Below, one piece after another: positions 15,712-57,035 of a stretch of 64,000 bases of DNA (positions are counted from its first letter, which is position 1; each line of letters starts with the position of its first letter). The stretch comes from Chthonomonadales bacterium. Lineage in GTDB: Bacteria; Armatimonadota; Chthonomonadetes; Chthonomonadales; CAJBBX01. Under the pieces are notes generated by a model. The model had not been told where the DNA came from. It worked only from the letters and a program-made list of their open reading frames with translations, and searched no databases. The translations under genes and the position numbers were made by a program. Location: the NCBI GenBank assembly GCA_013360745.1, contig JABWBA010000004.1, forward strand, positions 13,275 through 77,274, read 5' to 3'.

Positions 15712-16464
15712 ATGAGACGCGCCATCATCGGCTTGCTGCCTGCATTTTGGTTTGTCGGACACCCGGGCGCCGCCGCTCAGACTCCGGATGAATCGGCGGC
15801 TCCGATCCTCGCCCCGGCGATCCGCGTGGCCAGCTCAGGGACGCTATCGCTCATCAGACGATCTGATGTTCAGAATGGCCTTCGCCTCAGCCTTCGTCAG
15901 AGGAACGAGCTGCAGGCGCTCCTCGCGGCGCCGCAGCAGTTCCGCCTATTGCTGAACCTGGGCGCGGATTCTGCGAACGGCGGCCCGCGTCAGGCCGAGG
16001 ATCAGGTCGAACAGCAGGCCGGAGACCATGAGGCTCGCTTGCGGGCGATCCTGGATGAGAAACAATGGGCGCGCCTGGCTCAGATCCGCCTCCAATGGCA
16101 AGGGGCGCTGGCGCTCGCGGAGCCTGCAACTGCCGATCTTGCGGGGCTCTCCGATAACAGCCGCAACGCGGTCGTGGCGATTGCTGCCGAGTACGAGGAC
16201 GTTCGCCGAGAGGTGTTCGCTTCCCTGACAAGGAAGCGTGAGGAAGACTCATCGAACGGAACTCGGCGGCGAATCGCGATTCGGATCGACACTGCGGAAC
16301 TGGAGCAACCGGGTTCGCCCGCCTACAAGAAGCTGGCGGCCGCCAAAAAGGACGCCGAGGAGCGCATCATCAAGAGCCTTCTCGATACAGAGAAGAAGGC
16401 ATGGGCGAAGGCCTGCGGAGCCCCGTTTGTCTTCCGCGCTGATATCAAAGGGCTCCGCTTCTGA
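15712..16464 (+). CDS. Hypothetical secreted protein
   Basis: Signal-like N-terminus MRRAIIGLLPAFWFVGHPGAAAQ, a good RBS, and GC3-rich codons. I recognise no family. Confidence 0.5.
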   Translation: MRRAIIGLLPAFWFVGHPGAAAQTPDESAAPILAPAIRVASSGTLSLIRRSDVQNGLRLSLRQRNELQALLAAPQQFRLLLNLGADSANGGPRQAEDQVEQQAGDHEARLRAILDEKQWARLAQIRLQWQGALALAEPATADLAGLSDNSRNAVVAIAAEYEDVRREVFASLTRKREEDSSNGTRRRIAIRIDTAELEQPGSPAYKKLAAAKKDAEERIIKSLLDTEKKAWAKACGAPFVFRADIKGLRF

Positions 16465-16599
16465 GATCGTCCATATCCCTCGCGGCCCCGAACCTCCGAC
16501 GGATACCGGAGCTACGACCAACGCCATTCCGACGGGAGCGCTGATCCATCTCGCTGGTATACTAGGATCGAAGCACGTTACGATCGAGAGGATTGCGCC

Positions 16600-17496
16600 A
16601 TGGGAAACATCGATACAGTAAAGTCCACCTGGAGGAACAAGGTCGGTCTGGCCGAGATGTTGAAGGGCGGCGTGATCATGGATGTTGTCACCGTCGAACA
16701 TGCGACGATCGCCGAAGAGGCCGGCGCCTGTGCCGTCATGGCGCTGGAGCGAGTGCCGGCCGATATTCGCGCTACGGGCGGTGTCGCGCGGATGTCGGAC
16801 CCGCGTCTCATCAAAGAGATCATGGCGGCGGTGTCCATACCGGTGATGGCCAAGGCGCGCATCGGCCATTTCGCCGAAGCGCAGCTCCTGGAATCCCTGG
16901 GCGTCGATTTCATCGATGAGAGCGAGGTGCTCACTCCGGCCGACGAGGAATACCACATCAACAAGCACGCCTTCAGCGTTCCCTTCGTCTGCGGCTGCCG
17001 CAACCTCGGCGAGGCCCTTCGGCGGATCGGTGAAGGCGCGGCGATGATTCGGACGAAGGGCGAAGCGGGTACCGGCAACGTCGTCGAGGCAGTTCGCCAT
17101 ATGCGGGCTGTGATGGGCGGCATGCGGCGGCTGCAGGCGATGCCCGAAGAGGAGCTGATGACCGCCGCCAAAGAGATGGGCGCTCCGTACGATCTCGTCT
17201 GCGAGATACATCGGACGGGCCGCCTGCCTGTGCCGAACTTCAGCGCCGGCGGGATTGCGACTCCGGCTGATGCCTCTCTCATGCGTCAGCTGGGTGCCGA
17301 GGCGATCTTCGTCGGCTCCGGCATCTTCAAATCGGCCAATCCGGCGGCTCGGGCGAAAGCCATCGTCACAGCGAATACGTATTATGATAAGCCCGAGGTC
17401 GTCGCAGAGGTTTCTGAAGGTCTCGGTGACGCTATGTTCTCCATCGATGTCCGCAAACTCGATGAAGAAGACCGAATGGCCTCGCGCGGCTGGTAG
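16600..17496 (+). CDS. pdxS: Pyridoxal 5'-phosphate synthase lyase subunit
   Basis: [38 protein letters not shown]... is canonical PdxS. Confidence 0.95.
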
Positions 17497-17639
17497 CCAG
17501 TAGCCCCGCATCGAACCGGCGCTAGATCGCCGTTCTAGAGCGAAACCAAATAGCCCTCTCCGTGCGTAAGGTTTCGTACTAGACAAGGCAGACGACAGCC
17601 ACACCGGACGAAAGAGACGCCCAACGAACCGTCGGGTGC

Positions 17640-19388
17640 ATGCCTATCGGCTCTGCATCAGGAATACCATACATGGGACCCATAGATCACGAGCCGCTCA
17701 TCGAGGGAGACGACGATTCGTCGTTCGGCAACGCGAGCGGTAAACGGCGTCAATCCGCATCGCGGCTTCTGACCGAGATCATCCAGGACACCACGCACGA
17801 CGACCCGCGTTTGGCCAAGCTCTATGCGCTCCGGATGATCATCGAACGCCAGCGCAAGGAGAGCGAAGAGGCCCAGCGCCTCAAGGCCGAATACGAAGAG
17901 ACCTTCAAACGCCTGACATCGCCTGCCAACCGGGTCGCGGTCTACCTCGGACCGGAGTCGGACGGAACGGCGTGTATCGCCATTGGCGACCAGGAGTACG
18001 TCGCAAGCGTCACCCCGGAGATGGAAGAGCGGACTCCTAAGATCGGCTCACGGGTGAAGGTGAACGAGGCGTTCGCGGTGATCGGCGATCTGGGCTATCA
18101 CCCTGCAGGCCCGCTGGTGAAAATCAGCGACGTGATCGACGACCGTCTTCTCCGTATCTCAACCGACCCTCAGGGTCTACAATCGCGCGTAATCCAGCGC
18201 TCCACGGATCTTCAAGACGTTACGCTGCACGCGGGCGACGAAGTGCGCCTCGAGCCGAATCTCAAGGTGGCCATCGAGCGATATCCGACGAAGGAGGCGC
18301 GAGACTACTTCCTCGAGGATGTCCCACCGCTGGAGTGGAGCCAGGTCGGCGGCCAGGAGCACGTCATCCAGGTGATTAACGACGCGATCCAGCTCCCGCT
18401 GCTCCATCCGGAACTCTATGCCCGATTTGAGAAGCGACCGCTCAAAGGGATCTTATTGTACGGCCCTCCCGGATGCGGCAAGACGTTGATCGGAAAAGCC
18501 ACCGCCTACAATCTGACGCGCGAATACCGAGAGCTTACCCACACGAAAGTCACTGAGTACTTTATGTATATCAATGGCCCCAAGGTACTGAGCATGTGGG
18601 TCGGTGAGACCGAACGGATGATCAGAGAGATCTTCGCAACGGCCAGGGAACGCGCAAGAGAAGGGCGCCTTGTATTCGTCTTTATCGACGAAGCCGAATC
18701 GTTGTTGCGAACTCGAACGTCGGGCCGGTGGTTCAACATCTCCAACACCGTGGTCCCTCAGTTTTGCGCCGAGATGGACGGTCTCGTAAGCCTGGACAAT
18801 GTCGTCGTCATCCTCACCTCCAATCGCCCGGACTATATCGATCCAGCCATCCTCCGGCCCGAACGGATTGACCGTAAGGTTAAGGTCAAACGGCCAGATC
18901 GGCAGGCCTCGCGGGACATTTTCGGCATCTATCTCCATTCGGGTATCCCCGTGGATCCGGATCTCGTTCGCCAGCATAAGGGCGACCCTGCCGCGGCGAG
19001 AGAGGAGATGCTTGACATCATCGTCGACTATCTCTGGCAGCGGAATACCGAAACGAGTTTTCTTGAGGTGTTCCTCCGTAACGGCAGCGTTGAGACGCTC
19101 TATTGGCGAGACCTCGTAAGTGGAGCCCTCATCCGTTCGGTTGTAGAACGAGCCAAGGATTTCGCGATACGTCGCAGCATTCAGAACCGCTCCGAAGTGG
19201 AGGGCATCACGGTCCACGACCTTCGAGAAGCGACCCGGATCGAGTACAAGGAAAATGAGATCTTCCCGAAAAGCGACGCTCAGGAGGACTGGTTGAAACT
19301 GCTCGACTACGATCCGGAAAACGTCGCCGCTGTTCGCCCTATTCGGCCTGAACGCAAACGCACCAGTTCAAAGCGCGATATTATCTAA
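17640..19388 (+). CDS. arc: Proteasome-associated AAA ATPase ARC/Mpa
   Basis: N-terminal coiled coil (RLAKLYALRMIIERQRKESEEAQRLKAEYEETFKRL) and an OB-like region. Walker A is GPPGCGKT and Walker B is VFVFIDEAES. It sits first in the pup-proteasome cluster. Confidence 0.9.
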   Translation: MPIGSASGIPYMGPIDHEPLIEGDDDSSFGNASGKRRQSASRLLTEIIQDTTHDDPRLAKLYALRMIIERQRKESEEAQRLKAEYEETFKRLTSPANRVAVYLGPESDGTACIAIGDQEYVASVTPEMEERTPKIGSRVKVNEAFAVIGDLGYHPAGPLVKISDVIDDRLLRISTDPQGLQSRVIQRSTDLQDVTLHAGDEVRLEPNLKVAIERYPTKEARDYFLEDVPPLEWSQVGGQEHVIQVINDAIQLPLLHPELYARFEKRPLKGILLYGPPGCGKTLIGKATAYNLTREYRELTHTKVTEYFMYINGPKVLSMWVGETERMIREIFATARERAREGRLVFVFIDEAESLLRTRTSGRWFNISNTVVPQFCAEMDGLVSLDNVVVILTSNRPDYIDPAILRPERIDRKVKVKRPDRQASRDIFGIYLHSGIPVDPDLVRQHKGDPAAAREEMLDIIVDYLWQRNTETSFLEVFLRNGSVETLYWRDLVSGALIRSVVERAKDFAIRRSIQNRSEVEGITVHDLREATRIEYKENEIFPKSDAQEDWLKLLDYDPENVAAVRPIRPERKRTSSKRDII

Positions 19389-19440
19389 GCCGTCCGATCG
19401 CCCCGTTAGTGCGGAGCGATACGCGCGGCGGCTATGATCC

Positions 19441-21003
19441 ATGACGCGACTCCTGGGACTCGAAACGGAATACGGCCTGGACATCGATGGGATTGAACCC
19501 GGACAGATGATCGCGGAGAGCCGAGAGGTCGTTCTCTGCTGTCCGCAACCCTATTTCGACAAATGGGACTACGCCCATGAGGATCCGCGTCGGGACATCC
19601 GGGGATACCGAGTCAAACGGCTCCGCCGACCCGCTTCCGAGGTCGAGTACGCTTCGGCTGACCCGCGATTTCGGTCGATCAGCGAGGAGCACGCCGATCG
19701 GATCCTCCCATGTGGTGCGCGATTGTATAACGACCATGGCCATCCCGAGTTCAGTACGCCCGAATGCGTATCGCTGCAGGATCTGGTCCGCTATGACCGG
19801 GCCGGTGAGCGGATCGTGCGCCAGTGCGCGGCCTTCTACACTCAGCGTACCGGCCGCGCGACCCGGATCGTCAAGAACAACACGGACTTCCACGGGTCCA
19901 GCTATGGCTCCCATGAGTCGTATCTGGTCACCAGAACCATTCCGGCCGATACTCTTATCGCCGCGCTCGCCCCGTTCCTCGCCACCCGTCAGATATTCGC
20001 TGGCGCCGGTAAAGTCGGTCACGACGTGCGGAGGCATAGAGGCTCCTCCTATCAGATCAGTCAACGCGCCGAGTACATCGATACCGTCGCAAGTGTCGAC
20101 ACGCTCACGCGGCGGGCTCTGGTCAACACGCGAGACGAACCTCATGCAGATGAGAACCTGTATCGCCGTCTCCATATTATCGTCGGCGACGCGAACATGA
20201 GCGAATGGGCCACGGCGATGAAGGTGGGCTCCCTGGCGCTCGTCCTCGATGCGCTGGAAGCCGGCTGGACGCCTCCGTTCACCCTTACCAACCCCGTGGC
20301 GGCGGTGCGGGCGATCGCCATGGATCCGTCCCTCAGCGCGCTGGTGCCGGTCGACGCCGTCCATCGCAGCGGCAGTCATCCGTCAGCGATGTCGGCGATT
20401 GAGATCCAGCGAGCCTACAGGGACGCCGCAGGCGAATGCAGCTCCGATCTTCGGGAGAGAGACTGGGTGCTGTCGGAATGGACCGAAGCCCTTGATGATC
20501 TGATGGAAGACCCGGAACGATGCGGTGATCGGATCGATTGGATCGCCAAACGGCGAATGATCCAACTCTTCGAAGAGCATACCGACGGCCAGGCGGATCC
20601 TCAGGGGGCGCTTCAGAGCATCGACCTCGCTTATCACGACACGGATCCTGCCGAAGGTCTATACCACGCGTTGGAGGACGAGGGTGCGATTCGGCGAGTA
20701 GTGACCGACGATGCGATCGAGCAGGCACTCAGGGAGCCGCCTATCGCGACGCGGGCGTTCGTCCGCGGCCATTTCGTCTCTCATCATAGAGACAGGATGA
20801 TCGCCGCCAGCTGGTCGGAGATCGCGTTCCGATCGGAGGACGGCGCCCGAGTGTTCGATATGAGCGGACTGGTCGACGGCTCGCTCGAGCCAATGAACAG
20901 GGACCTGGCCGCGGCGTGTTCCCTGGCGGATACAGAACGCGCGCTTCGGCGATATCGGGCCACAGGAACACGTATAGAAGGTACGAAACAGGATCAAGAA
21001 TGA
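19441..21003 (+). CDS. dop: Pup deamidase/depupylase Dop
   Basis: Member of the PafA/Dop family (GLETEYG ... HPEFSTPEC). It has a roughly 25-residue longer insert between these two motifs than its paralog at 22815, and it lies immediately upstream of the modifier gene, as in known loci. Confidence 0.85.
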   Translation: MTRLLGLETEYGLDIDGIEPGQMIAESREVVLCCPQPYFDKWDYAHEDPRRDIRGYRVKRLRRPASEVEYASADPRFRSISEEHADRILPCGARLYNDHGHPEFSTPECVSLQDLVRYDRAGERIVRQCAAFYTQRTGRATRIVKNNTDFHGSSYGSHESYLVTRTIPADTLIAALAPFLATRQIFAGAGKVGHDVRRHRGSSYQISQRAEYIDTVASVDTLTRRALVNTRDEPHADENLYRRLHIIVGDANMSEWATAMKVGSLALVLDALEAGWTPPFTLTNPVAAVRAIAMDPSLSALVPVDAVHRSGSHPSAMSAIEIQRAYRDAAGECSSDLRERDWVLSEWTEALDDLMEDPERCGDRIDWIAKRRMIQLFEEHTDGQADPQGALQSIDLAYHDTDPAEGLYHALEDEGAIRRVVTDDAIEQALREPPIATRAFVRGHFVSHHRDRMIAASWSEIAFRSEDGARVFDMSGLVDGSLEPMNRDLAAACSLADTERALRRYRATGTRIEGTKQDQE

Positions 21004-21012
21004 GGTGCGTCC

Positions 21013-21192
21013 ATGATAATCCATATTGAGGATCGACTACGGCGCCCGGCCCCGACGGGACCGGAGCGGAAGCCGGATACCGGCCCGTCCAAGCCCGATG
21101 TGCAGCGGCCAACATCGGATGAGCTCCTGCGAAGGATGAAGAAGGTTGACCCGGAGTCCGCACGGCGATACCGCCAACGAAGCGGCCAGTAG
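21013..21192 (+). CDS. pup: Prokaryotic ubiquitin-like modifier, UBact/Pup type (59 aa; not in ORF track)
   Basis: GAGGTG SD 5 nt upstream. Translation is MIIHIEDRLRRPAPTGPERKPDTGPSKPDVQRPTSDELLRRMKKVDPESARRYRQRSGQ, ending in Gly-Gln. It sits exactly between dop and prcB. Confidence 0.8.
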   Translation: MIIHIEDRLRRPAPTGPERKPDTGPSKPDVQRPTSDELLRRMKKVDPESARRYRQRSGQ

Positions 21193-21195
21193 CTC

Positions 21196-21984
21196 ATGTC
21201 CCATCGCGACCTTCGCGCGCTGATCAGCGGCGAGACCCCTGTAATCCCGATACCGGAGCCGGCGGCGCCGAATCCGGCTGCCACGGCGCCGCATCCGTCG
21301 CATGGATCCGCAGTGCACGGCACCACGGTCATTGCCGTCAAATACGCGGGCGGCGTGATCAACGTCGGAGATCGACGCGCGACCGCCAACTATGCCGTGA
21401 TGTACGATCGTGCGGAGAAGGTGCTCCCTATCGACGACTACACACTCCTCGCCATCTCCGGATCCTACGCGCGCTCGATGGAGGTGGTTCGGTACCTCCG
21501 CCATTCGTTCCGGTACTTCGAACGCTCCCAGCTCCAGCCGATGAGCCTGGACGGCAAGCTCTCCGAGCTCGCGAAGGTGATCGCGGCCGGGCTGCCCGCC
21601 GCAATGCAGGGGATCGGCGGCTTTCTACCGTTGCTGAGCACGTATGACCGAACGGCCGGAGAAGGGCGGATTTTCTTCTACGATGTCATGGGAGCCCGCT
21701 TCGAGAGCGGAGAGTTCGCTGCGGCCGGGTCCGGCTCCATGCAGATCCGCGGGGTGTTCAACTATATCGCGCGAACCCGGGGTCCTTTTCACACGATGGA
21801 TCGCCGTACAGCCCTTCGCGAGGCGCTGTTCCTCCTCGATATCGCAGCGGATCTGGACGCGGCGACCGGCGGATGGTCCAAAGTGCTGCCGCTGGCAAAG
21901 ACGATTAGCGCCGAGGGCATCGAGGACGTACCGGAACCCGAGCTGGCAGAGCTGACCAGCGAGATTACGGAACTAGAGGGCTAA
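21196..21984 (+). CDS. prcB: 20S proteasome subunit beta (with 42-aa propeptide)
   Basis: ...SAVHG/TTVIAVKYAGGVINVGDRRAT matches the propeptide cleavage site and catalytic Thr1 context of bacterial PrcB. Confidence 0.9.
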   Translation: MSHRDLRALISGETPVIPIPEPAAPNPAATAPHPSHGSAVHGTTVIAVKYAGGVINVGDRRATANYAVMYDRAEKVLPIDDYTLLAISGSYARSMEVVRYLRHSFRYFERSQLQPMSLDGKLSELAKVIAAGLPAAMQGIGGFLPLLSTYDRTAGEGRIFFYDVMGARFESGEFAAAGSGSMQIRGVFNYIARTRGPFHTMDRRTALREALFLLDIAADLDAATGGWSKVLPLAKTISAEGIEDVPEPELAELTSEITELEG

Positions 21985-21990
21985 TACCGC

Positions 21991-22803
21991 ATGGCGTTCA
22001 CTCCATTTGACTTCAACGAAGCCGTGAGCCAGCGACGGGACCATGCGAACGAGGGCCTGCGTTTCGGCAGCCCTGTTGTCGGCGTCAGCTGCACCGAGGG
22101 CCTCGCGATCGTCACCATACGGCGATCCCAGCGCAAGGTGTTCGAAATCTACGACCGCATCATATACTCGGCTATCGGGAACCAGTCGGATATCGAGGCG
22201 ATCCGGCTCGGAGCCGTCGATCTCGCGGCGCGGGAAGGTTTTCAGCGGAGTCCGGACGACGTGACGGCGCAGCGCCTCGTCGGATTTTCCCTCAGCCCGG
22301 CGCTGAAGGAGATATTCCGAGATCAATGGAGAGCCCCGTCCATAATCCGCGCGCTCTTCGGCGAGCTCGGCGATGTAGCCGAACAAGATCGGTTCTATAT
22401 CCTGAACTATGACGGCGAGTTCGCAGCGCACACCGATCGGGCCGCGCTGGCCGGATCCGCTGCCGCAGAAGATCGGATGCTCGAAACGCTCCATGCTTCG
22501 ATGGGGGATTCCCTTCCTGATCTTTCACATGCGATCGAGGCAGCGCTCCGCGCCTGGGCGACCGGGAGTATCGTCCTGAACGAAAGACACGACGATGATT
22601 CCGATAGCGCGGCATACGACGATCGGGCCCTCCGCAGTCGGCTTCGCGAAGAGCTTCGATCGGCCCGAGTCGAGGTTGGGATCCTCGAACGGGCTCCGAA
22701 CCGTGAAGCCCGTTTTCGCCTCCTTGAGTCGGCCTATCTCGATCCTATCGTTGCTCTGCTGATCGAGGACAACGCGGCCGGCAACGGATTAGAGCAGAGC
22801 TAG
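21991..22803 (+). CDS. prcA: 20S proteasome subunit alpha
   Basis: MAFTPFDFNEAVSQRRDHANEGL...KVFEIYDRIIYSAIG resembles the N-terminus and core of bacterial PrcA. It starts 6 nt after prcB. Confidence 0.85.
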   Translation: MAFTPFDFNEAVSQRRDHANEGLRFGSPVVGVSCTEGLAIVTIRRSQRKVFEIYDRIIYSAIGNQSDIEAIRLGAVDLAAREGFQRSPDDVTAQRLVGFSLSPALKEIFRDQWRAPSIIRALFGELGDVAEQDRFYILNYDGEFAAHTDRAALAGSAAAEDRMLETLHASMGDSLPDLSHAIEAALRAWATGSIVLNERHDDDSDSAAYDDRALRSRLREELRSARVEVGILERAPNREARFRLLESAYLDPIVALLIEDNAAGNGLEQS

Positions 22804-22814
22804 GCGTTGCATCG

Positions 22815-24359
22815 ATGCTCCCACGTGTCGTCGGTCTGGAGACGGAGTTCGGATGCTTCGTGCGGGATTCGGATCTTGGCGAGCCGGAAGACATCGTCGA
22901 GATCGTAAAGAACACCATATTCCAGAACCGACGGGTTGGGGCGCTGGATATCCACACGCGCGATTTTGCGTTCGAACCCGCCGGAGCCGGGGGCTTCCTC
23001 ATCAACGGCGGCCGTCTCTATATCGACGCCGTCGGGAGTCACGAGGAATACGCGACACCCGAATGCGCCTCTCTGACGGACCTTGCGCTCTACGATCGCG
23101 CAGGACGAATGCTCCTACAGTCGGCGCTGGATGACCTGCAGATCGCCGATCGCGTGAGTTTTCACGATAACTCCGTCGATCATTTCGGCGGGCATACGTT
23201 CGGATGCCACGAGAACTATCTCATCCGAGTGGATGAGGATCGGTATCTTCATGCGATCGGCCTCCTGCTGCCGTTCTTGATTACACGGCAGATATTCGCC
23301 GGAGTAGGACGGGTTGGGGGGCATCGTCTCACACGTCCGGACAGCCGGTCCAATATCATGAGCCTCAGCGATCGTGATATCGACTACGTCTGGGTCAGCA
23401 ACTTCTATGGTGTCGAGATCGATCCGGAGGTCGACTTCCAGCTGTCTCAGCGCGCGGACCACATAGTCCGGGCGGTTTCGTCCCGAGTTCGATTCAATCG
23501 GGCCATCATCAACCCCAAGTGGGATGCGTACTACAGCCATGAAGGCGCCCACCGTCTCCATATTCTCTTCGGCGAGGCGAACAAGAGCGAATACGCAACG
23601 ATGCTCAAGGTCGGCGCTACGGCCGCAGTCCTGGATATCATCGAGCGTGGGGAAGCTCCCGAAGACCTGATTCTTGAAGAGCCGCTTCGTGATCTCCGAT
23701 CGGTATCGCGCGATTCCACGTACCGCTGGCTGGTCACGCTGCTGGATGGCAGCACCATCGGTGCGGTCGACCTCCAACGGCGCTATCTCGCAACAGCGCA
23801 GCGCTGTCTCAGCGGTCAGGACGCGGAGACCGATTGGGTCCTCAGCGAATGGGAACGGACGCTGGATGATCTTGAGCGGGATCCTATGTCAACCTCCGAT
23901 CGCCTCGATTGGTCCGCCAAACGGTCGTTGTACGAAGGGTTCATCGCATCCGAAGGGCTATCCTGGCAGGATGACATGCTCCACAGCCTGGACCTCGAGT
24001 ACCACAATATCAACCCGGCCGCAGGCCTGCATGCCGCGCTGGAAGACCAGGGCCGAATGATCCGTTACTCCGACGATGTCTCCGTCGCAAGGGCGATGAC
24101 ATCGCCCCCGGCATCGACACGGGCCCATGCCAGAGGCGGGATCGTCTCGGCGCTGATCGAACGCCCGGGCCTGGGTTACATCGTCGACTGGGATGGCGTT
24201 TTCGTCGAGTCCCGACGTCAGATCAATCTGACCAACCCGCTGCGCACCTATGCGGCCGAGGCACAGCGTTTCATCGAACGGCTGCCGACACCGTCGACTG
24301 CCGAGAAGGGCGCCGGCGCGAAACGCCGGAAGAGCCGAGGTCAGGACCCCGCGGAGTGA
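22815..24359 (+). CDS. pafA: Pup--protein ligase PafA
   Basis: PafA/Dop family (GLETEFG ... GSHEEYATPEC) without the Dop-type insert. It is the last gene of the cluster. Confidence 0.85.
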   Translation: MLPRVVGLETEFGCFVRDSDLGEPEDIVEIVKNTIFQNRRVGALDIHTRDFAFEPAGAGGFLINGGRLYIDAVGSHEEYATPECASLTDLALYDRAGRMLLQSALDDLQIADRVSFHDNSVDHFGGHTFGCHENYLIRVDEDRYLHAIGLLLPFLITRQIFAGVGRVGGHRLTRPDSRSNIMSLSDRDIDYVWVSNFYGVEIDPEVDFQLSQRADHIVRAVSSRVRFNRAIINPKWDAYYSHEGAHRLHILFGEANKSEYATMLKVGATAAVLDIIERGEAPEDLILEEPLRDLRSVSRDSTYRWLVTLLDGSTIGAVDLQRRYLATAQRCLSGQDAETDWVLSEWERTLDDLERDPMSTSDRLDWSAKRSLYEGFIASEGLSWQDDMLHSLDLEYHNINPAAGLHAALEDQGRMIRYSDDVSVARAMTSPPASTRAHARGGIVSALIERPGLGYIVDWDGVFVESRRQINLTNPLRTYAAEAQRFIERLPTPSTAEKGAGAKRRKSRGQDPAE

Positions 24360-24461
24360 GAGGACAATCGGCGTTGCTCACGATCGGACGGGTACAATGC
24401 TCCGATCCGGATGGATACGCTGCTTGCCGATTCCGGTCAGGGAAATGAGGAGTCTGTGAAT

Positions 24462-24983
24462 ATGAACGACAGAACAGTTACCATGCGCGGCACACCGCTG
24501 CACCTCCGGGGTATCGAGCTCCGTGTCGGCGACCGTGCACCCGATATACGGCTTCAGCAGCGAAGCCCGGAGGGGCTGAAAGATATCACCTGGGACGATT
24601 TCGACGGCAAGAACGTAATCCTCAGCGTCGTGCCGTCGCTCGACACACCCGTCTGCGAGAAGCAGACCGTACGCTTCAACGATGAGGTCATCAGCCTGCC
24701 CGCCAACGTCGAAGTGCTGACGGTTAGTATGGACCTGCCCTTCGCCCAGGCTCGTTTCTGCTCCGAGAAAGGGACCCATCAGGTTCAAACGGCTTCCGAT
24801 CACCGTACCGCAGAGTTCGGCGAGGCCTACGGGGTTCTGATCGAGGAACTCCGGCTTCTCGCCCGCGCCATCTTCGTCGTCGATGTCAACAGGCAGATTC
24901 GCTACGTGGAGTACGTGCCCGAGGTAACCGACCAGCCCGACTACGATCGTGCTCTGGCAGCCGCGCGGGAACTGACAGACTGA
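24462..24983 (+). CDS. tpx: Thiol peroxidase (atypical 2-Cys peroxiredoxin)
   Basis: VVPSLDTPVCEKQT active-site context; 173 aa from ATG 24462 behind GAGGAG. Confidence 0.9.
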   Translation: MNDRTVTMRGTPLHLRGIELRVGDRAPDIRLQQRSPEGLKDITWDDFDGKNVILSVVPSLDTPVCEKQTVRFNDEVISLPANVEVLTVSMDLPFAQARFCSEKGTHQVQTASDHRTAEFGEAYGVLIEELRLLARAIFVVDVNRQIRYVEYVPEVTDQPDYDRALAAARELTD

Positions 24984-25035
24984 CGGCGCTCGCTCGCCGC
25001 AGGCTTGCGCCCGATCTCGCTGAGAACGATCGGAT

Positions 25036-26763
25036 GTGAAGCGACCTTCGTACGGTGATGCCATCGCGCTGGCGGCGCTGGGCTTCCTTTGTTTTCTCTG
25101 GCGTCTCGGCGCTCCCGGGCTGTTTGACTTCAATGAAGGACTCTATGTCGAAGCCGCACGGGAGATGGTCCTCCGTTCTGACTACATCACTGGCCGCGTC
25201 AACGGTGTCCCGTTCTACGACAAGCCACCGCTCGCCCTGTGGCTCGTTGCCCTTAGCTTCAAAGCGCTCGGCCAGAGCGAAATGGCGGCCCGGCTGCCCG
25301 TAGCTCTCTCTGCGCTGATCGCCGTGTTCGGGGCTTACTGGTTCGGCCTTCAAGGCTGGAACCGGCGCACCGGACTCCTTGCCGCCGTCTTCTGCGCCTC
25401 CAGCCCCATCTTCGTGGGCACCGCGCGGCAGATGACCATGGACATCCATCAGTCAGCAACGGTGACGCTCGCGATGATCTGCATGTTCCTCGGCATGCGC
25501 GCCGACGAAGCGAAGAAATCCCGTGCGGCTGCCGTGTGGTGGATGGGCTTCTGGGCGATGTGCGGCGCCGGTTTTATGGCCAAGAGTTTCCCGGGCCTTC
25601 TCCCGATTCCCATAGCCGTCGTCGTACTGGCGGTCCGGTCGCGACTCGCTCCGCTGCCAACGCTGCGCGCATGGTGGTCCGCACGTCCTGTGCATGGCAT
25701 GCTGGCGCTCGCGGCTGTGGTGGCGCCCTGGCACCTTGCGGCTTATCATAAGGACGGCTCCTACTTTGTCTATGAGTACTGGACCCTTCACCATGTCGCT
25801 CTCTTCAAGGGAACTCAGTTCGATCATGTCCAACCGTTCTGGTACTACGGACCCGCCCTACTCGGCGGCTTCTACCCCTGGAGCATCCTGACGCCGCTTG
25901 GGCTGCGCCGTTATGACGCCAGCGCCGCCGACCGTACGGTCCAGATCCTTATGTGGACCTGGGCGCTCGTTACCGTTGGTATCTTCAGCCTGATGACATC
26001 CAAGCTCGTCAGCTACCTCCTCCCGATGTATCCGGCCATCGCCATCATCACTGCGGCCGGAGTGGATCGGGCATTATCGAAGGCACAGGGAGCGAAGAAG
26101 GCCCGTGCTGTTCCGTTACTCCCACTATCGATCTCGCTGATCGCCGTGCTGCAGCTGGTTGCGATCGCCGCGCTCTGGCAGTATGTCACGCCCCGCCTCC
26201 ACGAGATCCGTGATCCCGAAGCCTTGCCTCTGCTGGCGCCCAATCTGGTCCGTTATTTGTGGCGCGCGGTTGGTCTGCTAGCCTGCGGATCGACATTCGC
26301 TGCGTTTCTCGCATGGCGACGACCCGATCGAGGCGTCACAGCCCTCGTCCTTACATTCCTGGGCTTCCTGATGTTGAGCTGGGAGCAAGGCCTCCCGGCC
26401 TATGATCAAGCCGTGAACCTGCCGCTCCGCAAAGCGGTCCGCAAGGCCGATGCGCTTTCCGGCTCGGGTTCGCCGCTCGTGGTGTTCATCGGGCGGCCGC
26501 GCCGACCCAGCGTGTTTTTCTATCTGGACGATCGTCGCTTGATCAGATCCGCATCAGCTGGCAGACCTAACGACCCCATTATGTTGGAGACGATCGATCA
26601 AGAGCCCCTCCGGCGCTATGTATCGGAGCACGGCCGCACCGTAATCCTTGCAGACCGACAGCGTGGCAAGGACGCCCTTGGCTCGATTGCCCCTTACGAA
26701 GAAGCCTACCGTTCCGGCCGCTGGTCGGTGTTGGTCACGGAACCGGGAGCCTCGAAGCCGTGA
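25036..26763 (+). CDS. GT39-family (ArnT/PMT-like) membrane glycosyltransferase, copy 1
   Basis: Multi-pass protein with the first-loop motif FNEGLYVEAAREMV...GVPFYDKPPLALWL typical of ArnT/PMT enzymes. Confidence 0.8.
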   Translation: MKRPSYGDAIALAALGFLCFLWRLGAPGLFDFNEGLYVEAAREMVLRSDYITGRVNGVPFYDKPPLALWLVALSFKALGQSEMAARLPVALSALIAVFGAYWFGLQGWNRRTGLLAAVFCASSPIFVGTARQMTMDIHQSATVTLAMICMFLGMRADEAKKSRAAAVWWMGFWAMCGAGFMAKSFPGLLPIPIAVVVLAVRSRLAPLPTLRAWWSARPVHGMLALAAVVAPWHLAAYHKDGSYFVYEYWTLHHVALFKGTQFDHVQPFWYYGPALLGGFYPWSILTPLGLRRYDASAADRTVQILMWTWALVTVGIFSLMTSKLVSYLLPMYPAIAIITAAGVDRALSKAQGAKKARAVPLLPLSISLIAVLQLVAIAALWQYVTPRLHEIRDPEALPLLAPNLVRYLWRAVGLLACGSTFAAFLAWRRPDRGVTALVLTFLGFLMLSWEQGLPAYDQAVNLPLRKAVRKADALSGSGSPLVVFIGRPRRPSVFFYLDDRRLIRSASAGRPNDPIMLETIDQEPLRRYVSEHGRTVILADRQRGKDALGSIAPYEEAYRSGRWSVLVTEPGASKP

Positions 26764-28544
26764 GCGCCCGGCTCATCACCCTCCAGGCGTGCTTGCTGAC
26801 TGCTCTATGCTACGTCGCTTTCTGGAACGGGCTCGGCCATCTCGACATCACCGATCTGGACGAAGGTCTCTACGCCGCTGCCGCTCGTGACATGGCGCTG
26901 ACGGGAGACTGGATTACGCCGCGCGTCAACGGCGCGCCGTTTTTCGAGAAGCCTCCGTTGCTGTACTGGCTCTCCTCTTCATCGATCCGCTGGCTCGGGC
27001 CGACCGAAGCGGCTGTCCGGACGCCAACCGCCCTCGCCGCCTCCGTCCTCGTATTCATGACATGGCTGGTCGGCATCCGGTATCTGGATCGTCGGGCGGG
27101 CTTCCTGAGCGCGGCGTTCCTGGCCTTGTCCCCGATCTCGGCAGGCTCCGGGCGACTCGTCACTACGGACATGCTGCTCACCCTCACGTTGTCTGCCGGG
27201 ATCCTCCTTCTGTTCGCGGCAAGAAATGCGCGCGGCAGCCGGGCGATACTCGCATCCGCAGCCGTCGGCTTCCTGTGCGGTCTTGCGGTATTGGCCAAAG
27301 GAGCGCCGGGAATCATGATCCCAGCCGGTGTCGTCGGTATCTGGACACTGCTTCGTCGCCGGCGCGGCATCGGCGCGCCATCGATCGTCCGCAACCCGGC
27401 GCTCGCCGGACTCGCGCTTATGGTCTTCCTGGCGACCATGCTCCCGTGGCATTTGGCGGCATGGAGGGCGAATGGTCGGAGCTTTACCGAGGAGTATGTG
27501 CTCCGACAGCACATTGGACGGTTCAAGGGCGGCGATGTTAGCCACCACGCACCGCCCTACTTCTTCATTCCCGGCTTTATTGCGGGGTTTTTCCCGTGGA
27601 GCCTGTTTACTGCCGCGGCTCTCTGCAGCCGGCGAGGAGCCTCACAGATGGCAAACGAGTCTGGAGGAGCATCAGAACCGGCGGAGAATCCCACGGTGGA
27701 ACTCCGATCGCTTCTCAGGACCTGGTTCTGGGTGGTATTCCTCGTATTTTCTGCCAGCGGATCCAAACTGATCAGCTACATCCTCCCGCTCTACCCGCCG
27801 GCAGCGCTTCTGGCGGGCGATTGGGCGACGGCTGCACAGGCATCGGTACGTGGCCGCCGGATCCTGATCACGGGTGGATTCATCGCGGCGACCCTGCTGG
27901 CGTTGACCCTGGGCCTCTTCTCGTGGCCCGATCCTCTCATCCGTATCATCGAGCGGTATGCAAACCGTCCGATCGAGGCGCCGCCGCTGGATGCAGCGAT
28001 ATTGCATACGGTCCAGATTCTAGCCGCAACGGCGGCTGGCGGAGTTCTGTCCTTTTGTGTGTCGATGAGCCTCCGGCGTGCTGCCATCGCATGGACCTCG
28101 CTTCTCGCAGGGATGGCGATGTTCTTAATGATCGCCGTCCATCGAGGCATTCCGCTTATCGACCATGAGACGGTCGGATCACTGCACCGGCTCGCGGCAG
28201 CCGCAGGAGCGCGAGCTGGAGATGAGGCAAGCGTCGCGTTCCTCGTCGGGCCGCCCCGACGACCGAGCGCCCTTTTCTATCTCCCGGACGATTTGCTGAA
28301 GGAACGAAGGGTTACAGAACGCGCCAGAGCGCTGATCGCTACCGTGCCGGCAGGTCGGTCAAGCCCCCGCACGCGTGATCTCTGGGTAGTGGCGCCAAAA
28401 CGCGCGGCCTCGATCCTCAGACAGGCAGGTGCGGTGTGCACTGTCCGCGAATCGGACTATGAGTTGTGGGTGCTTCGCGCCATCCCGCCTTCGAAGCCGT
28501 CCTCAGACCGGCGCTCCCACCGCGAAGAAGGAACAACATCGTGA
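26760..28544 (+). CDS. GT39-family (ArnT/PMT-like) membrane glycosyltransferase, copy 2
   Basis: DEGLYAAAARDMALTGDWITPRVNGAPFFEKPPLLYWL. The GTG start overlaps the upstream stop (GTGA). It is a paralog of the preceding gene. Confidence 0.8.
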   Translation: MSARLITLQACLLTALCYVAFWNGLGHLDITDLDEGLYAAAARDMALTGDWITPRVNGAPFFEKPPLLYWLSSSSIRWLGPTEAAVRTPTALAASVLVFMTWLVGIRYLDRRAGFLSAAFLALSPISAGSGRLVTTDMLLTLTLSAGILLLFAARNARGSRAILASAAVGFLCGLAVLAKGAPGIMIPAGVVGIWTLLRRRRGIGAPSIVRNPALAGLALMVFLATMLPWHLAAWRANGRSFTEEYVLRQHIGRFKGGDVSHHAPPYFFIPGFIAGFFPWSLFTAAALCSRRGASQMANESGGASEPAENPTVELRSLLRTWFWVVFLVFSASGSKLISYILPLYPPAALLAGDWATAAQASVRGRRILITGGFIAATLLALTLGLFSWPDPLIRIIERYANRPIEAPPLDAAILHTVQILAATAAGGVLSFCVSMSLRRAAIAWTSLLAGMAMFLMIAVHRGIPLIDHETVGSLHRLAAAAGARAGDEASVAFLVGPPRRPSALFYLPDDLLKERRVTERARALIATVPAGRSSPRTRDLWVVAPKRAASILRQAGAVCTVRESDYELWVLRAIPPSKPSSDRRSHREEGTTS

Positions 28545-30748
28545 TACTGGCCCCGCTGATGAGTGTCCTGCCACTGATGGTCCCGGACCTGCCAACGGGT
28601 CCGACGCCTCTGCCGGCGCCGATGCGCCATTTCCCCGATCGGCTCCATGCCTTCGTCTGGCGCAACTGGCAACTTGCGCCCGCAAACCGCATGGCGAAGG
28701 TGGTCGGCGCCCGGACTGCCGATATCGTCCAGCTCGGACGTTCGATGGGACTGACGGGTCCGCCCCGTATCAGCCCCGATCAGTTCCGAAGGTCCCACGT
28801 CTCGATCATTCGTCGAAACTGGCACATCCTCCCCTATGAGCAGCTGCTGACGCTCCTTGGCTGGACCTCGGCTCAGCTAGCCTATGCTCTGCGTGAGGAC
28901 GACTTCCTCTACATCAAGCTCGGGAGTCTCAAGCCGCAGTGCGATCCGCTGGTCTTCCATGCGCCCGATGCCCATGCACAGCTTCAGGCTGCTCGGATCG
29001 CTGCGTCTCTGAAGGAGCTCTTCCCGAACGGCGTCGGGATGATGCCGAAAGCGCCCTTCTCCTTTGTCAAGGAGCTGAGCACAGGACCTGTTGATCGGGG
29101 GTCTTCGGCGAGAGATCGCCCTCCACGATATTGCTACTCCTATTTCGGTCTGTACGGCGATCCATTCGGCCCGGAGGCCGGTGACCCGTATCCGCCCGCC
29201 TATCTGACCCGGCTATCCCGTCTCGGGGTCAACGGAGTCTGGTTGCAGGCGGTGCTGCCACAGCTCCATCCGCTGCCCTGGGCTCCTGAGCTCAGCCAGG
29301 GAGCCGAAGTCCGCCTCAAGAAGCTCGGCGCTATGGCGCGGCAGGCTCGGCGGAGCGGGATCGGCCTGTACCTCTATCTCAACGAGCCCCGTGCCATGCC
29401 GCTGAGCTTCTATGCACATCACCCTGAGCTGAAAGGCGCGGACGAAGGGGACCACGCAGCCCTATGCACCAGCGCCGAACCGGTTCGCCGATACCTCACC
29501 GATGCCATCGAAGCGATTTGCCGCGCTGCGCCCGATCTGGCGGGTTTCTTCACCATCTCGATGTCCGAGAATCTCACCAACTGCTTTTCGCATGGCGGCG
29601 CGGCCCGTTGCCCCCGATGCTCTACGCGGACCGGCAGCGAGGTTATCGGTGAACTCCACGAGGCGCTATGGAACGGCATACGCAATGCGGACGGACAGCA
29701 GCAGCTAATCGCCTGGGATTGGGGCTGGCCGGACGCATGGGCTCAGGACGCGATCGCGCACCTGCCGACGGGCGTCACCTTCATGAGCGTTTCCGAATGG
29801 AGCCTCCCCATCACGAGAGGCGGGGTGGCCTCAGAGGTGGGCGAATACTCGATCAGCTCGGTCGGACCCGGTCCGCGCGCCGAACGCCACTGGGCCTGCG
29901 CGCAGGAGCGCGGACTGAAAACCCTGGCCAAGGTACAGGCAGGTGCGACCTGGGAGATGTCCGCCATGCCCTATGTGCCCGTACTGCGGCTGATCGCTGA
30001 GCACGCTGCCAACCTGCGGCGGGCCGGCGTCCAGGGCGCCATGCTCGGATGGACCCTTGGCGGATATCCATCGCCCAATCTCGAGGTGTTCAACCGGGTA
30101 CTCGACGGCGAGGATCCGGAGCGCTCTCTACAGGCGGTAGCCGAGAAACGATATGGCAAGGACGCCGCGGATGAAGTCGTACGGGCCTGGGACGACATGA
30201 GCCAATCGTTCCGGGAGTTCCCTTATCACATCGGCGTTGTATACACCGGTCCGCAGCAGCTCGGGCCAGCGAATCCTCTCTGGTTGGAGCCGACCGGGTA
30301 TCGAGCCACCATGGTAGGTTTCCCCTATGACGACCTCGACGCCTGGCGATCCATCTATCCGCCTGATGTCTTCATCGCGCAAATGGACAAGACGGCCGCA
30401 GGATTCACCACGGCCGCCAATCGGTTAGAGGCGTTGTCCGATCGTGGCGTCGGCAGCCACTCCGCAGTACAGCTCGAGGCCGGCCTCGCGCGTGCGTGTG
30501 CGATCCACTTCACATCTGTGGCCGATCAGGCCCGATTCATCCTCCGACGTAGTCAGGCTAGAACAGATACAGTGCGTGATGAGCTGAGAGACATCCTGCA
30601 TCGCGAGATCGAGCGGGCGCGCCGACTCTACAACCTCCAATGCGAAGACCCGCGTATCGGGTTCGAAGCAACCAATCAGTACTACTACCTGCCGCTGGAC
30701 CTCGTCGAAAAAGCCCTCAACTGCAGAGAACTGCTCTCCAGACTCTAG
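28541..30748 (+). CDS. Hypothetical protein, putative clan GH-A-like TIM-barrel glycoside hydrolase
   Basis: LGVNGVWLQAV...GIGLYLYLNEPRAM (an NEP acid/base-like motif) and ...FMSVSEWS. The start is uncertain: GTG 28541 overlapping the upstream stop, or ATG 28559. Confidence 0.55.
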   Translation: MILAPLMSVLPLMVPDLPTGPTPLPAPMRHFPDRLHAFVWRNWQLAPANRMAKVVGARTADIVQLGRSMGLTGPPRISPDQFRRSHVSIIRRNWHILPYEQLLTLLGWTSAQLAYALREDDFLYIKLGSLKPQCDPLVFHAPDAHAQLQAARIAASLKELFPNGVGMMPKAPFSFVKELSTGPVDRGSSARDRPPRYCYSYFGLYGDPFGPEAGDPYPPAYLTRLSRLGVNGVWLQAVLPQLHPLPWAPELSQGAEVRLKKLGAMARQARRSGIGLYLYLNEPRAMPLSFYAHHPELKGADEGDHAALCTSAEPVRRYLTDAIEAICRAAPDLAGFFTISMSENLTNCFSHGGAARCPRCSTRTGSEVIGELHEALWNGIRNADGQQQLIAWDWGWPDAWAQDAIAHLPTGVTFMSVSEWSLPITRGGVASEVGEYSISSVGPGPRAERHWACAQERGLKTLAKVQAGATWEMSAMPYVPVLRLIAEHAANLRRAGVQGAMLGWTLGGYPSPNLEVFNRVLDGEDPERSLQAVAEKRYGKDAADEVVRAWDDMSQSFREFPYHIGVVYTGPQQLGPANPLWLEPTGYRATMVGFPYDDLDAWRSIYPPDVFIAQMDKTAAGFTTAANRLEALSDRGVGSHSAVQLEAGLARACAIHFTSVADQARFILRRSQARTDTVRDELRDILHREIERARRLYNLQCEDPRIGFEATNQYYYLPLDLVEKALNCRELLSRL

Positions 30749-54344: not shown

Positions 54345-54614
54345 TAGATATTCTACCCTACGCCCAGACGCAGACTGCGGTTCCGCGCTGCTCACCATCC
54401 TGAAGTATCGGGAGGTACGACGACGCCAGGAAGGAATCGAGCCGGTACGCGCCGTAGTTGCTGTAAGAGGCGACGTGTCCTTGCCCGTCGTCTGGAGAGC
54501 AGTCCGTTCACGACTCATACGCCGAGATCCATAGGCAAATGACGGCGTGCGGGCAGCGCATTGTTAGATGCGCCGCCGCACAACTACATGATCTGTAAGG
54601 ACGGAGGTAATGGG

Positions 54615-57035
54615 ATGTTGATGAGATACACCGAAGTTCGACGGCGGATGGCCTTCATCATTGCCCTATCGCCGCTTGCGTTCCTACCCGCGGCGGAAGC
54701 GAGCTCGCCTGTCAGGGCCGGACAGGCATCCAGGATCACCTCAGCCGAGGTCTTGAAACGACTGGAGACAGCAAGAAAGGCGTACAGTCAAGGTGATTAT
54801 GCCGCCATCCTTCTCGCCACCCAGCGCATTGTGGAGAGTCCCGTTCTGAGCAAGACCACGAGCGAAGGGCAACCTGTGGCAAGCGAAATCTGGTTCTATC
54901 ATGGCTGGGCTTGTCTGCAATCTGGTAATACGCACGGCGCGCGCACCTACCTGCGAAAGAGCGCTTCGACTGGCGAGAATCGCTGGGCCAAACAATCCGC
55001 TGAACTGCTTGGCGATCTCGATACCAGTGATCTCGATCGCGCTGTATCGAGGCTCATCGACTACCTCAGCAAGAACGCGTATGACCAGGCTCGTAATGCC
55101 TTGAAAGTAGCGCGCCGAGACTATCCGTCTCCACCAACTGGTGTAAAAGAAGACCTTGAGTGCGTCGATGGGATCCTTGCGTGTTATGACGCTGCGGGTC
55201 GCGAGAGCAGAGGCCCTCTAAGAGACTGTCTGCGCCAATACAGCGCTCGACATCCGGATGGCAGGTTGGCTCTGTACGCCTCGAACAAACTGGCTCAGCT
55301 CTCCCGACCAAAGGTGTGCTTTGTTGAACAGGGTCAGGGTCTCCTCGGCTATTCTGAGTACGACGGTACACATCGCGAATGGCTGACAAGCCGCGAACAC
55401 GGCCGTGTTCAGTTCGCTGAGATCGCGGCCGACTCCAACCAATACGCCTTTGTTGCTTGGGCGCCCGATAGCGGCGTCCTGCAAGTCTATGTTGGGCGAA
55501 TGGGCGGATCTGAGACGCCGGCAGTGATATGGAGCAAGCGGGTGCCCGAAGCGGCCATCGCCCGGCCAGTCGTTCGCGATCTGCGATGGACGCCAACGCC
55601 GGAACGACAATCACTCGCGTTTATCGCCCCAACAGCGAATGATGAAATAGCCGTGTGGCTGTGGAACTCCGGAGATCGAAGGGCCGAGAGTCTGGAGGGC
55701 AGTGTCACGCCGCCTGACAGCGCAGAACAAAGCTCGTTTCGCTGGTCTCCCGACGGTCACTACCTGGCATATCTCGACGGAGGTCGTTTCCTTCGCGTGG
55801 TTCGCAGAGACCGTACCGGTGTCGGCGGGGGCAAGCGGATCACGACGGCCAGTGAGGTTCTGGACTTCACCTGGGCACGATCTCCCGATGTCGGCGCCGA
55901 ACCGGTTCTGATCGGCCTTACGAGGGGTGGCGTCTTTATGGCCAGCGTCCTGGGCGGGGATATTAGAGTCGACGCTTTGGAGTTAACCATGTCGGAACCA
56001 TCGGCGCCGGCAGGTGGGATCGCTCCGACGCCGCAGACACGCGTGGCGACCTGTGCCGTAACCGCAGCAGATGTTGTTACAGCGGATAAGGAGCGGACGC
56101 TGGGTTCCATCGGACTATCCTGCAGAGCGGACACCGGAATGGTCGCGGTCGGCGAGACGACTCTGTACCTGAATCCTGAGGCGCGACGCGAGGTTGAATC
56201 CAAACTGCTGAAACAGATCGGGAAGCAGACGGGCAAGGTAAAGATCGACCTGAATCGGGCGATCGTCGTCGATATCCAGTTCGATCGCTATGTCTACGAC
56301 GCTGCGACCCAGACAGGCCGTCTCGACGGCATCCGCGTACGCGGCATCCGTACGGATATTAGCCCGGATAATGTCTCACGCCTTTCCGATCTCGGGCCAG
56401 CCGTGGTGCAGCTCCCGCCGGAGGAATGGGAGAAGCGATCTCGCATCGATGTCTCCAGCGATGGTTCGTATGCGTCTCTCTTCGATGAAAAGAGCCAGAC
56501 CGCCTATATCTACGGCCTTGCTCCGTTCCGAGAACTGGATCGCCTGAAGGGCGTGAGCGACGTTAAGTTCGCCCCTCAAGGCCCCTTCCTCGCCTTTCGA
56601 TCGCCTGACGGTCTCTATCTTGCGCCGAACCCGTCGACCGCGAGTAAGCTTCACTATCGCATCGCAGGGTCCGGTGCGGGTACGGGTTTCGAGTGGTCGC
56701 CCGCCGGCAACGAACTGGTCCGCTGGGGCGACGTCGGGAGTAGCGTCAAAGCCGTCTATATGAACCAGGTTCTCTACGGCTGCGAGGGCCCTCCAAAAGA
56801 GACCGCGGCGCTGTATCCAACCGGCGTCTATGAGAAGTGCCGTTTTGCCCCGGATGGGACCATGGTCGCGCTGCAACGAAAGGAACGCCAGAGCGGCAAC
56901 TCCGAAGAGACCGCCGGCGTCTACACGATGATTAGGGGACGCGTCTATACCCCTACCCCGGAAACGGCGCGATTGGTCCGCTTGCCCTTCGACGATCGCA
57001 ACACACTGGTCGGATGGCTCTGGTATCGCGAATGA
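54615..57035 (+). CDS. Hypothetical secreted TPR plus PD40/TolB-like beta-propeller protein
   Basis: Signal-like MAFIIALSPLAFLPAAEA. The N-terminal third is TPR-like, followed by PD40-type blades (FRWSPDGHYLAYLDGG, VKFAPQGPFLAFRSPDG, FEWSPAGNELV, CRFAPDGTMVALQ). Start set at ATG 54615 behind GGAGGT. Confidence 0.6.
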   Translation: MLMRYTEVRRRMAFIIALSPLAFLPAAEASSPVRAGQASRITSAEVLKRLETARKAYSQGDYAAILLATQRIVESPVLSKTTSEGQPVASEIWFYHGWACLQSGNTHGARTYLRKSASTGENRWAKQSAELLGDLDTSDLDRAVSRLIDYLSKNAYDQARNALKVARRDYPSPPTGVKEDLECVDGILACYDAAGRESRGPLRDCLRQYSARHPDGRLALYASNKLAQLSRPKVCFVEQGQGLLGYSEYDGTHREWLTSREHGRVQFAEIAADSNQYAFVAWAPDSGVLQVYVGRMGGSETPAVIWSKRVPEAAIARPVVRDLRWTPTPERQSLAFIAPTANDEIAVWLWNSGDRRAESLEGSVTPPDSAEQSSFRWSPDGHYLAYLDGGRFLRVVRRDRTGVGGGKRITTASEVLDFTWARSPDVGAEPVLIGLTRGGVFMASVLGGDIRVDALELTMSEPSAPAGGIAPTPQTRVATCAVTAADVVTADKERTLGSIGLSCRADTGMVAVGETTLYLNPEARREVESKLLKQIGKQTGKVKIDLNRAIVVDIQFDRYVYDAATQTGRLDGIRVRGIRTDISPDNVSRLSDLGPAVVQLPPEEWEKRSRIDVSSDGSYASLFDEKSQTAYIYGLAPFRELDRLKGVSDVKFAPQGPFLAFRSPDGLYLAPNPSTASKLHYRIAGSGAGTGFEWSPAGNELVRWGDVGSSVKAVYMNQVLYGCEGPPKETAALYPTGVYEKCRFAPDGTMVALQRKERQSGNSEETAGVYTMIRGRVYTPTPETARLVRLPFDDRNTLVGWLWYRE

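Follow-up and report, generated by a model that had tools for sequence, protein, structure and literature searches.

A predicted UBact gene between dop and prcB in a compact proteasome operon of a Chthonomonadales bacterium

Organization of the locus

The window, which here means the whole 64-kb stretch of DNA that was analysed, contains six genes arranged on the same strand in the order mpa-dop-UBact-prcB-prcA-pafA and separated by gaps of only 52, 9, 3, 6, and 11 nt, respectively. The genes, together with the presumed ribosome binding site of the smallest of them, are as follows.

17640 to 19388 (+): Mpa/ARC-like proteasomal AAA+ ATPase, 582 aa from the first ATG, with the Pfam domains AAA, Prot_ATP_ID_OB_N, and Prot_ATP_ID_OB_C
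19441 to 21003 (+): Dop homolog, presumed UBact deamidase and deconjugase (Pfam Pup_ligase, 477.8 bits; Dop-loop and motifs present)
21002 to 21007 (+): Shine-Dalgarno-like GAGGTG, read from the sequence, overlapping the dop stop codon and followed by a 5-nt spacer (cgtcc) to the UBact ATG
21013 to 21192 (+): UBact gene, 59 aa ending RSGQ and then TAG (PF20513 and NF033388 matches, identical NCBI protein, 71 syntenic orthologs)
21196 to 21984 (+): PrcB, 20S proteasome beta subunit with propeptide (Pfam Proteasome, 82 bits; 20S_bact_beta, 155.5 bits, below the cut-off of 191.9)
21991 to 22803 (+): PrcA, divergent 20S proteasome alpha subunit (20S_bact_alpha, 80.7 bits, below the cut-off of 139.05; Pfam Proteasome, 20.8 bits, just under its cut-off; syntenic in relatives)
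22815 to 24359 (+): PafA-like paralog, presumed UBact-protein ligase (Pfam Pup_ligase, 409.4 bits; no Dop-loop)

Translation of UBact is probably coupled to that of the neighbouring genes. When positions 16400-25200 were scanned for promoters and terminators, nothing resembling a promoter was detected, nor was any terminator at the operon ends convincing, and the boundaries of the operon are therefore drawn from the small intergenic gaps only.

The Mpa homolog, which public gene calls start at 17673 to give a protein of 571 aa, contains in its translation Walker A (GPPGCGKT) and Walker B (FIDEAE) motifs, the WVG pore-loop motif and an N-terminal helical segment, and scores 436.7 bits against the NCBIfam model TIGR03689 (pup_AAA), under the cut-off of 504.75. 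It terminates in ...KRTSSKRDII, and 55 relatives mostly end [RK]-[ND]-I-I (RNII in 14 of them). The RDII terminus is unlike the C-terminal motif through which mycobacterial Mpa docks on the 20S core. In PrcB the propeptide cleavage site (HG/TTVIAVKY) is evident, and Thr1, Asp17, and Lys33, as counted in the translation, are in place. None of the five homologs (Mpa, Dop, PafA, PrcB, and PrcA) reaches the NCBIfam equivalog cut-off of its family, and as read from the translations the catalytic motifs are intact in all of the operon enzymes.

The UBact open reading frame

The UBact open reading frame (ORF) begins with an ATG at 21013 and ends with a TAG at 21190-21192 on the forward strand, encoding a protein of 59 aa, MIIHIEDRLRRPAPTGPERKPDTGPSKPDVQRPTSDELLRRMKKVDPESARRYRQRSGQ. 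The dop stop codon (TGA) occupies 21001-21003 and the prcB ATG, at 21196, lies 3 nt past the UBact stop. An earlier interpretation of this DNA (the sequence-only reading) had described an ATG-initiated ORF between dop and prcB, preceded at a distance of 5 nt by GAGGTG, and both its coordinates and its translation were reproduced exactly. The same reading had remarked that the ORF was absent from the ORF track, which is accounted for by its length; by default the ORF lister reports nothing shorter than 60 aa, and this frame of 59 aa is listed once the minimum ORF length is set to 40 aa.

Taken by itself, the length of the frame is within chance expectation, in that a run of 59 stop-free codons has, by a hand estimate, a probability of ∼17% per frame at 62% GC. 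A frame of this size is unremarkable in such DNA, and the case for a gene therefore rests on homology and conservation. Against the Pfam model PF20513 (“Prokaryotic ubiquitin-like protein UBact”), which has a cut-off of 27.8 bits, the product scores 71.1 bits (E 6.6e-20), and against the NCBIfam equivalog model NF033388 (“ubiq_like_UBact”; cut-off 35) it scores 70.6 bits, so that the profile comparison against Pup and UBact proposed along with the sequence-only reading returned the UBact models well above their cut-offs. The 59-aa sequence is identical to that of the NCBI protein NUQ69490.1, named “ubiquitin-like protein UBact [Chthonomonadales bacterium]”, the neighbours of which, NUQ69489.1 and NUQ69493.1, are both named only “PafA2 family”, and public assemblies call the ORF as a gene carrying PF20513.

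The protein also resembles known UBact in its small size (∼60 aa), in its extreme C-terminus, R-[T/S]-G-[E/Q] (here RSGQ), in being adjoined by genes for Dop/PafA homologs, an Mpa-like ATPase and the alpha and beta subunits of a 20S proteasome, and in its host, which lies outside the Actinobacteria (the NCBI record is assigned to Chthonomonadales, and the nearest loci are from Chthonomonadales or other Armatimonadota metagenome-assembled genomes (MAGs)). No material difference from known UBact was found, the Chthonomonadales-type clade having Ser at position -3 (RSG[QE]). On the strength of these sequence matches, ORF 21013-21192 is a real UBact gene, and an ordinary call, given that curated Pfam and NCBIfam models exist and that NCBI already lists this very protein under the name UBact. 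A second copy of UBact was not found in the 64-kb window.

Coding signals within the ORF are of the kind expected for a gene. GC content by codon position (0.68/0.52/0.70) matches that of the flanking genes and the pattern is lacking in the other two forward frames. Across 8.2 kb, three near-identical contigs show 0, 8, and 50 base differences, only one of which falls within UBact, as a synonymous change at a third codon position. Three antisense ORFs of 131-155 aa (window 20741-21504, reverse strand) overlap dop, UBact, and prcB, and were rejected as genes since shadow ORFs of this kind are typical of GC-rich coding DNA.

Conservation and distribution of UBact

Related loci were collected by using the Dop homolog as query against a set in which each species is represented by a single genome. 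This yielded 80 loci, in which Dop is 43-54% identical and which come mostly from MAGs of Chthonomonadales or other Armatimonadota; one of them (L002), from a MAG of the cultured relative Chthonomonas calidirosea, carries the operon. A UBact homolog lies directly after dop and before prcB, on the same strand, in 71 of the 80 loci, with one further locus cut by the end of its contig, and the gene order of the related loci is the same as that of the operon in the window. Since all 71 loci that have prcB after dop contain a UBact ORF in between, every prcB-bearing locus carries UBact, in agreement with the expectation that the ORF would be conserved at this position in relatives. The remaining eight loci (L022, L025, L059, L066, L068, L069, L071, and L080), several of which are from Chthoniobacterales, contain a Dop homolog without UBact or proteasome genes; in these, no proteasome genes were detected within 4 kb downstream of dop, and a search of both strands revealed neither an ORF ending in [STG]G[EQ] nor a profile match.

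The tail of the protein is near-invariant in the relatives (LL.RM.RVDP..A.RYRQR[ST]G[EQ]), and in an alignment of 29 diverse sequences 15 columns are invariant (P17, G24, P25, P28, P33, R41, M42, D46, P47, A50, Y53, R54, Q55, R56, and G58). All 71 relatives end in RSGE (43), RSGQ (25), or RTGQ (3), bearing out the terminal signature R-[T/S]-G-[E/Q] that had been given for UBact in the sequence-only reading. The last residue is thus Glu in 43/71 and Gln in 28/71, and dop is kept in both cases. A search of a library of 1.84 billion cluster representatives yielded 182 clusters at E≤0.001 and shows UBact, at the level of predicted proteins, to be a widespread family. Of the 150 best among these clusters, 118 end in [ST]G[QE], distributed as TGQ (63), TGE (27), SGE (15), and SGQ (13), so that the signature also holds in the wider family; the Thr form is commoner in the family at large (90 of the 118 canonical ends), in contrast to the Ser form of the Chthonomonadales-type clade. 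Seven UBact-like products in the library (P0080, P0082, P0089, P0115, P0120, P0123, and P0131) run 20-50 residues past G-[QE] (e.g., ...RYRQRTGQWWTDHSW...), and these most likely represent frameshifts, read-through, or gene calls under another genetic code in low-coverage assemblies rather than precursor forms. One further match, an 852-aa protein with TPR repeats (P0165), is a false positive.

These data also bear on whether the ORF is a frame that stays open by chance, or GC-rich spacer DNA that is not translated, as might be suggested by its length, which is well within what such DNA produces, and by the three longer antisense ORFs that overlap it. This explanation is already refuted by the conservation of UBact, the amino acid sequence of which is kept in 71 loci despite Dop being only 44-54% identical, and it is likewise at odds with the match to a curated profile, the Shine-Dalgarno sequence at the correct spacing before the ATG, the codon-position GC shared with neighbouring genes and the synonymous nature of the sole substitution among near-identical strains; its probability is considered negligible. 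A role for the ORF as a leader peptide or upstream ORF of prcB was also rejected, because it is the amino acid sequence itself that is conserved, rather than the mere presence of a frame, and because the product belongs to a defined protein family.

Relationship of UBact to Pup

The sequence-only reading had termed the product a UBact/Pup-type modifier, and of the two names the first is upheld, by PF20513 and NF033388 scores above their cut-offs, and the second is not, there being no match to Pfam Pup. Specifically, no match to the Pup model was obtained at E≤1 for the protein from the window, nor at E≤10 for any of 29 UBact sequences, and among the PDB chains matched by a UBact profile at E≤10 none was Pup. 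When the UBact profile was compared by hhalign to Mtb Pup, only the last 27 columns were aligned, at 37% identity and with a probability of 3.9%; residues common to the two are D-x-LL and Y-x-Q-x-x-G-Q. The absence of a Pup profile or PDB match and the low hhalign probability are the basis on which the product is assigned, by family, to UBact and not to Pup.

The two proteins nevertheless have much in common. Both are small and mostly unstructured, carry a terminal Gln or Glu after Gly that alternates between the two residues, have a C-terminal half that is, or for UBact is predicted to be, composed of two helices, and are partnered by Dop and PafA paralogs and an Mpa-like ATPase. They differ in that the UBact tail is SGQ rather than GGQ, in that a significant sequence match between them is lacking, and in the charge of the helical half. 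In UBact this half (window 21100-21189) is basic, the final 26 residues having a net charge of +4 (+2 to +5 in the 71 relatives), whereas the corresponding part of Mtb Pup is strongly acidic, at about -9. Neither the G-G-[Q/E] tail nor the acidic helical half that characterize the Pup family (PF05639) is found in UBact. Contacts known from Pup recognition are therefore not simply transferable, and an inversion of charge in the recognition half implies that the binding grooves and the coiled coil of the ATPase would have had to co-vary with it.

The position of the gene between dop and prcB is, on the other hand, that of a pup gene, since pupylation loci in actinobacteria have the conserved order dop-tag-prcB-prcA (PMC3511204). 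It could thus be argued that the product is a true, though divergent, Pup and that no separate UBact family need be invoked, a view with which the terminal Gly-Gln, the predicted two-helix C-terminal half and the 27 columns alignable to Mtb Pup at 37% identity are also consistent. Against this stand the failure of either the 29 UBact sequences or the protein from the window to match Pfam Pup, the lack of a Pup chain among PDB matches to the UBact profile, an hhalign probability of only 3.9%, the SGQ tail and the opposite charge of the helical half, and membership of the Pup family is regarded as very unlikely; assignment to UBact is preferred.

An AF2 model of UBact consists of coil over residues 1-34 and of two helices, at 35-43 and 47-57, which are split by V-D-P (pLDDT 70, pTM 0.26). 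The input was a shallow alignment of four sequences, and the model therefore supports only the absence of a globular fold and the presence of two C-terminal helices, in keeping with the disorder-like N-terminal half and helix-prone C-terminal half that had been read from the sequence. The predicted arrangement is reminiscent of Pup, which forms two orthogonal helices on PafA and Dop (Cui et al., PMC8599861).

The Dop-like and PafA-like paralogs

The two paralogs that flank the tag and 20S genes were compared at the positions that discriminate Dop from PafA (Hecht et al., Table 1; PMC7947786), the structural roles of which were taken from Cui et al. (PMC8599861). Both are Dop/PafA-type members of the carboxylate-amine ligase superfamily (Pfam PF03136), with a full Pup_ligase domain, and both keep the GhExE motif together with R90, Y92, D94, R205, R239, and H241 (Acidothermus cellulolyticus Dop numbering).

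The product of the upstream gene most closely resembles Dop. Its best match in the PDB is Dop (4B0R, 309.5 bits, end-to-end), compared with 226.4 bits for PafA (4B0T), and it scores 413.3 bits against the NCBIfam Dop model (TIGR03688) and 323.9 against that for PafA, the former being below the equivalog cut-off of 492.3. A segment, KWDYAHEDPRRDIRGY, aligns to the Dop-loop of A. cellulolyticus Dop and includes W-D-Y, i.e., the conserved Trp and an aromatic residue; a His directly follows the catalytic Asp in LYNDHGHPEFSTPEC, NTRDEPHAD is present, and S-T-P follows the HPE motif. The Dop-loop, LYNDHGHPEFSTPEC, and NTRDEPHAD are conserved in 81 sequences.

The downstream paralog has the hallmarks of PafA, namely the lack of a Dop-loop, a one-residue insertion and G-S after the catalytic Asp (LYIDAVGSHEEYATPEC; LYIDAVGSH, or D-x-V-G-S-H) and an alpha-loop with His and Ser-Ser as in PafA (H..SS; DHIVRAVSS), and these are conserved in 39 orthologs. 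Its N-terminal region is ∼23 aa shorter than that of Dop and the SQR arginine is kept. Other alpha-loop positions (W190, E191, G192, A196, R199, and S200) are not PafA-like, and in overall similarity the protein is not closer to PafA, scoring 296.9 bits against the NCBIfam Dop model and 292.9 against that for PafA (TIGR03686; cut-off 551.3), both under the cut-offs, and 231.7 and 204.3 bits against Dop and PafA in the PDB.

Both paralogs fall under the equivalog cut-offs for the actinobacterial enzymes, and the putative ligase is unusual in further respects. It carries an extra insertion of ∼25 aa near residues 169-206, and NTRDEPHAD, the motif shared by Dop and PafA, is replaced by NPKWDAYYS (NPKWDxYY), which changes the phosphate-binding R227 to Lys and, in addition, H231 to Tyr (A. 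cellulolyticus Dop numbering). In 39 orthologs the replacement is likewise kept, as NPkwdsyy, which speaks against decay and in favour of a functional variant.

A proposed mechanism and its alternatives

Pupylation serves as the model for the steps proposed here for UBact (PMC3511204). Conjugation, unlike that of Pup, is put forward for UBact by analogy, and we infer on the same footing every biochemical step, including deamidation, ligation to lysine and delivery to Mpa and the 20S core. Free UBact would be largely unstructured, its conserved C-terminal half (LLRRMKKVDPESARRYRQRSGQ) forming a pair of short helices once seated in the groove of the Dop-like or PafA-like protein. The Dop homolog would deamidate the terminal Gln to Glu, the gamma-carboxylate of which would then be phosphorylated by the PafA-like ligase at the expense of ATP and joined to the epsilon-amino groups of lysines in target proteins. 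The Mpa-like AAA ATPase would recognise the tag and thread the conjugate into the 20S PrcAB core, and removal of the tag would also be carried out by the Dop homolog. The alternation of Gln and Glu among close relatives, the retention of dop where UBact ends in Glu and the two helices of the AF2 model would all favour such a Pup-like route. As a whole, a UBact gene in a compact proteasome operon, with a mechanism derived from that of Pup, appears to be the best explanation of the locus, with a probability of roughly 85%.

The sequence-only reading had held that a terminal Gln makes deamidation by Dop obligatory before ligation. This is too strong, because a hybrid engineered by converting Dop toward PafA pupylates directly from Pup-Gln and ATP, with no Pup-Glu released (PMC7947786). 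It is conceivable, therefore, that the PafA-like paralog likewise uses UBact-Gln directly, in a transamidation of mixed Dop/PafA character without separate deamidation, and that the main role of the Dop homolog is deconjugation. Besides the precedent of the engineered hybrid, such a scheme would accord with profile scores that place the paralog as near to Dop as to PafA and with the retention of dop in the 43 loci where UBact already ends in Glu. The paralog, however, resembles PafA in its missing Dop-loop, in the insertion with G-S and in the H..SS alpha-loop, frequent Gln/Glu alternation at the terminus of UBact fits a ligase that uses Glu, as in Pup, and wild-type PafA requires Pup-Glu (PMC7947786), and direct use of UBact-Gln is judged very unlikely in comparison with the Pup-like route.

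A more general possibility is that the UBact system may not simply be Pup written in other letters, and that its chemistry or recognition could differ from those of pupylation. This is suggested by the combination of a basic, charge-inverted tag half with a Dop-like ligase in which the phosphate-site motif has been rewritten (NPKWDxYY; R227 to Lys, H231 to Tyr), and a low probability, under one in ten, is accorded to it. Were UBact to depart from Pup, it might do so, for example, through direct transamidation from the terminal Gln with no free Glu intermediate, or by being docked on an Mpa homolog that ends, unlike its actinobacterial counterparts, in R-[ND]-I-I.

Significance and surrounding genes

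The UBact family was reportedly described by Lehmann, Udasin, Livneh, and Ciechanover in 2017. In the literature consulted, UBact is named only in passing or in reference lists and no experiment on UBact conjugation was found, and a 2025 minireview of pupylation is silent on non-actinobacterial systems (PMC12288473). The interest that remains lies in this scarcity of experiments on UBact systems and not in the present locus, which is nonetheless a clean and complete example of a UBact-proteasome operon in Armatimonadota. Because all six of its genes are intact and tightly packed, it would make a reasonable template for reconstitution. A practical lesson is that genes encoding fewer than 60 aa drop out of default ORF tracks.

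Elsewhere in the window, three ORFs with coding-like GC, at 15712-16464 (+, 250 aa), 28466-30748 (+, 760 aa), and 54561-57035 (+, 824 aa), matched no Pfam family at E≤1e-5, and the whole 64 kb yielded neither a tRNA gene nor an Rfam family above its gathering score. The operon is flanked by ordinary housekeeping genes, which encode PdxS (16600-17496), a redoxin (24411-24983), a GHL10 hydrolase-like protein, an isocitrate/isopropylmalate dehydrogenase, RecJ, RelA/SpoT, a SecDF fusion, two PMT_2 glycosyltransferases, and a GH129-like protein of 1265 aa.
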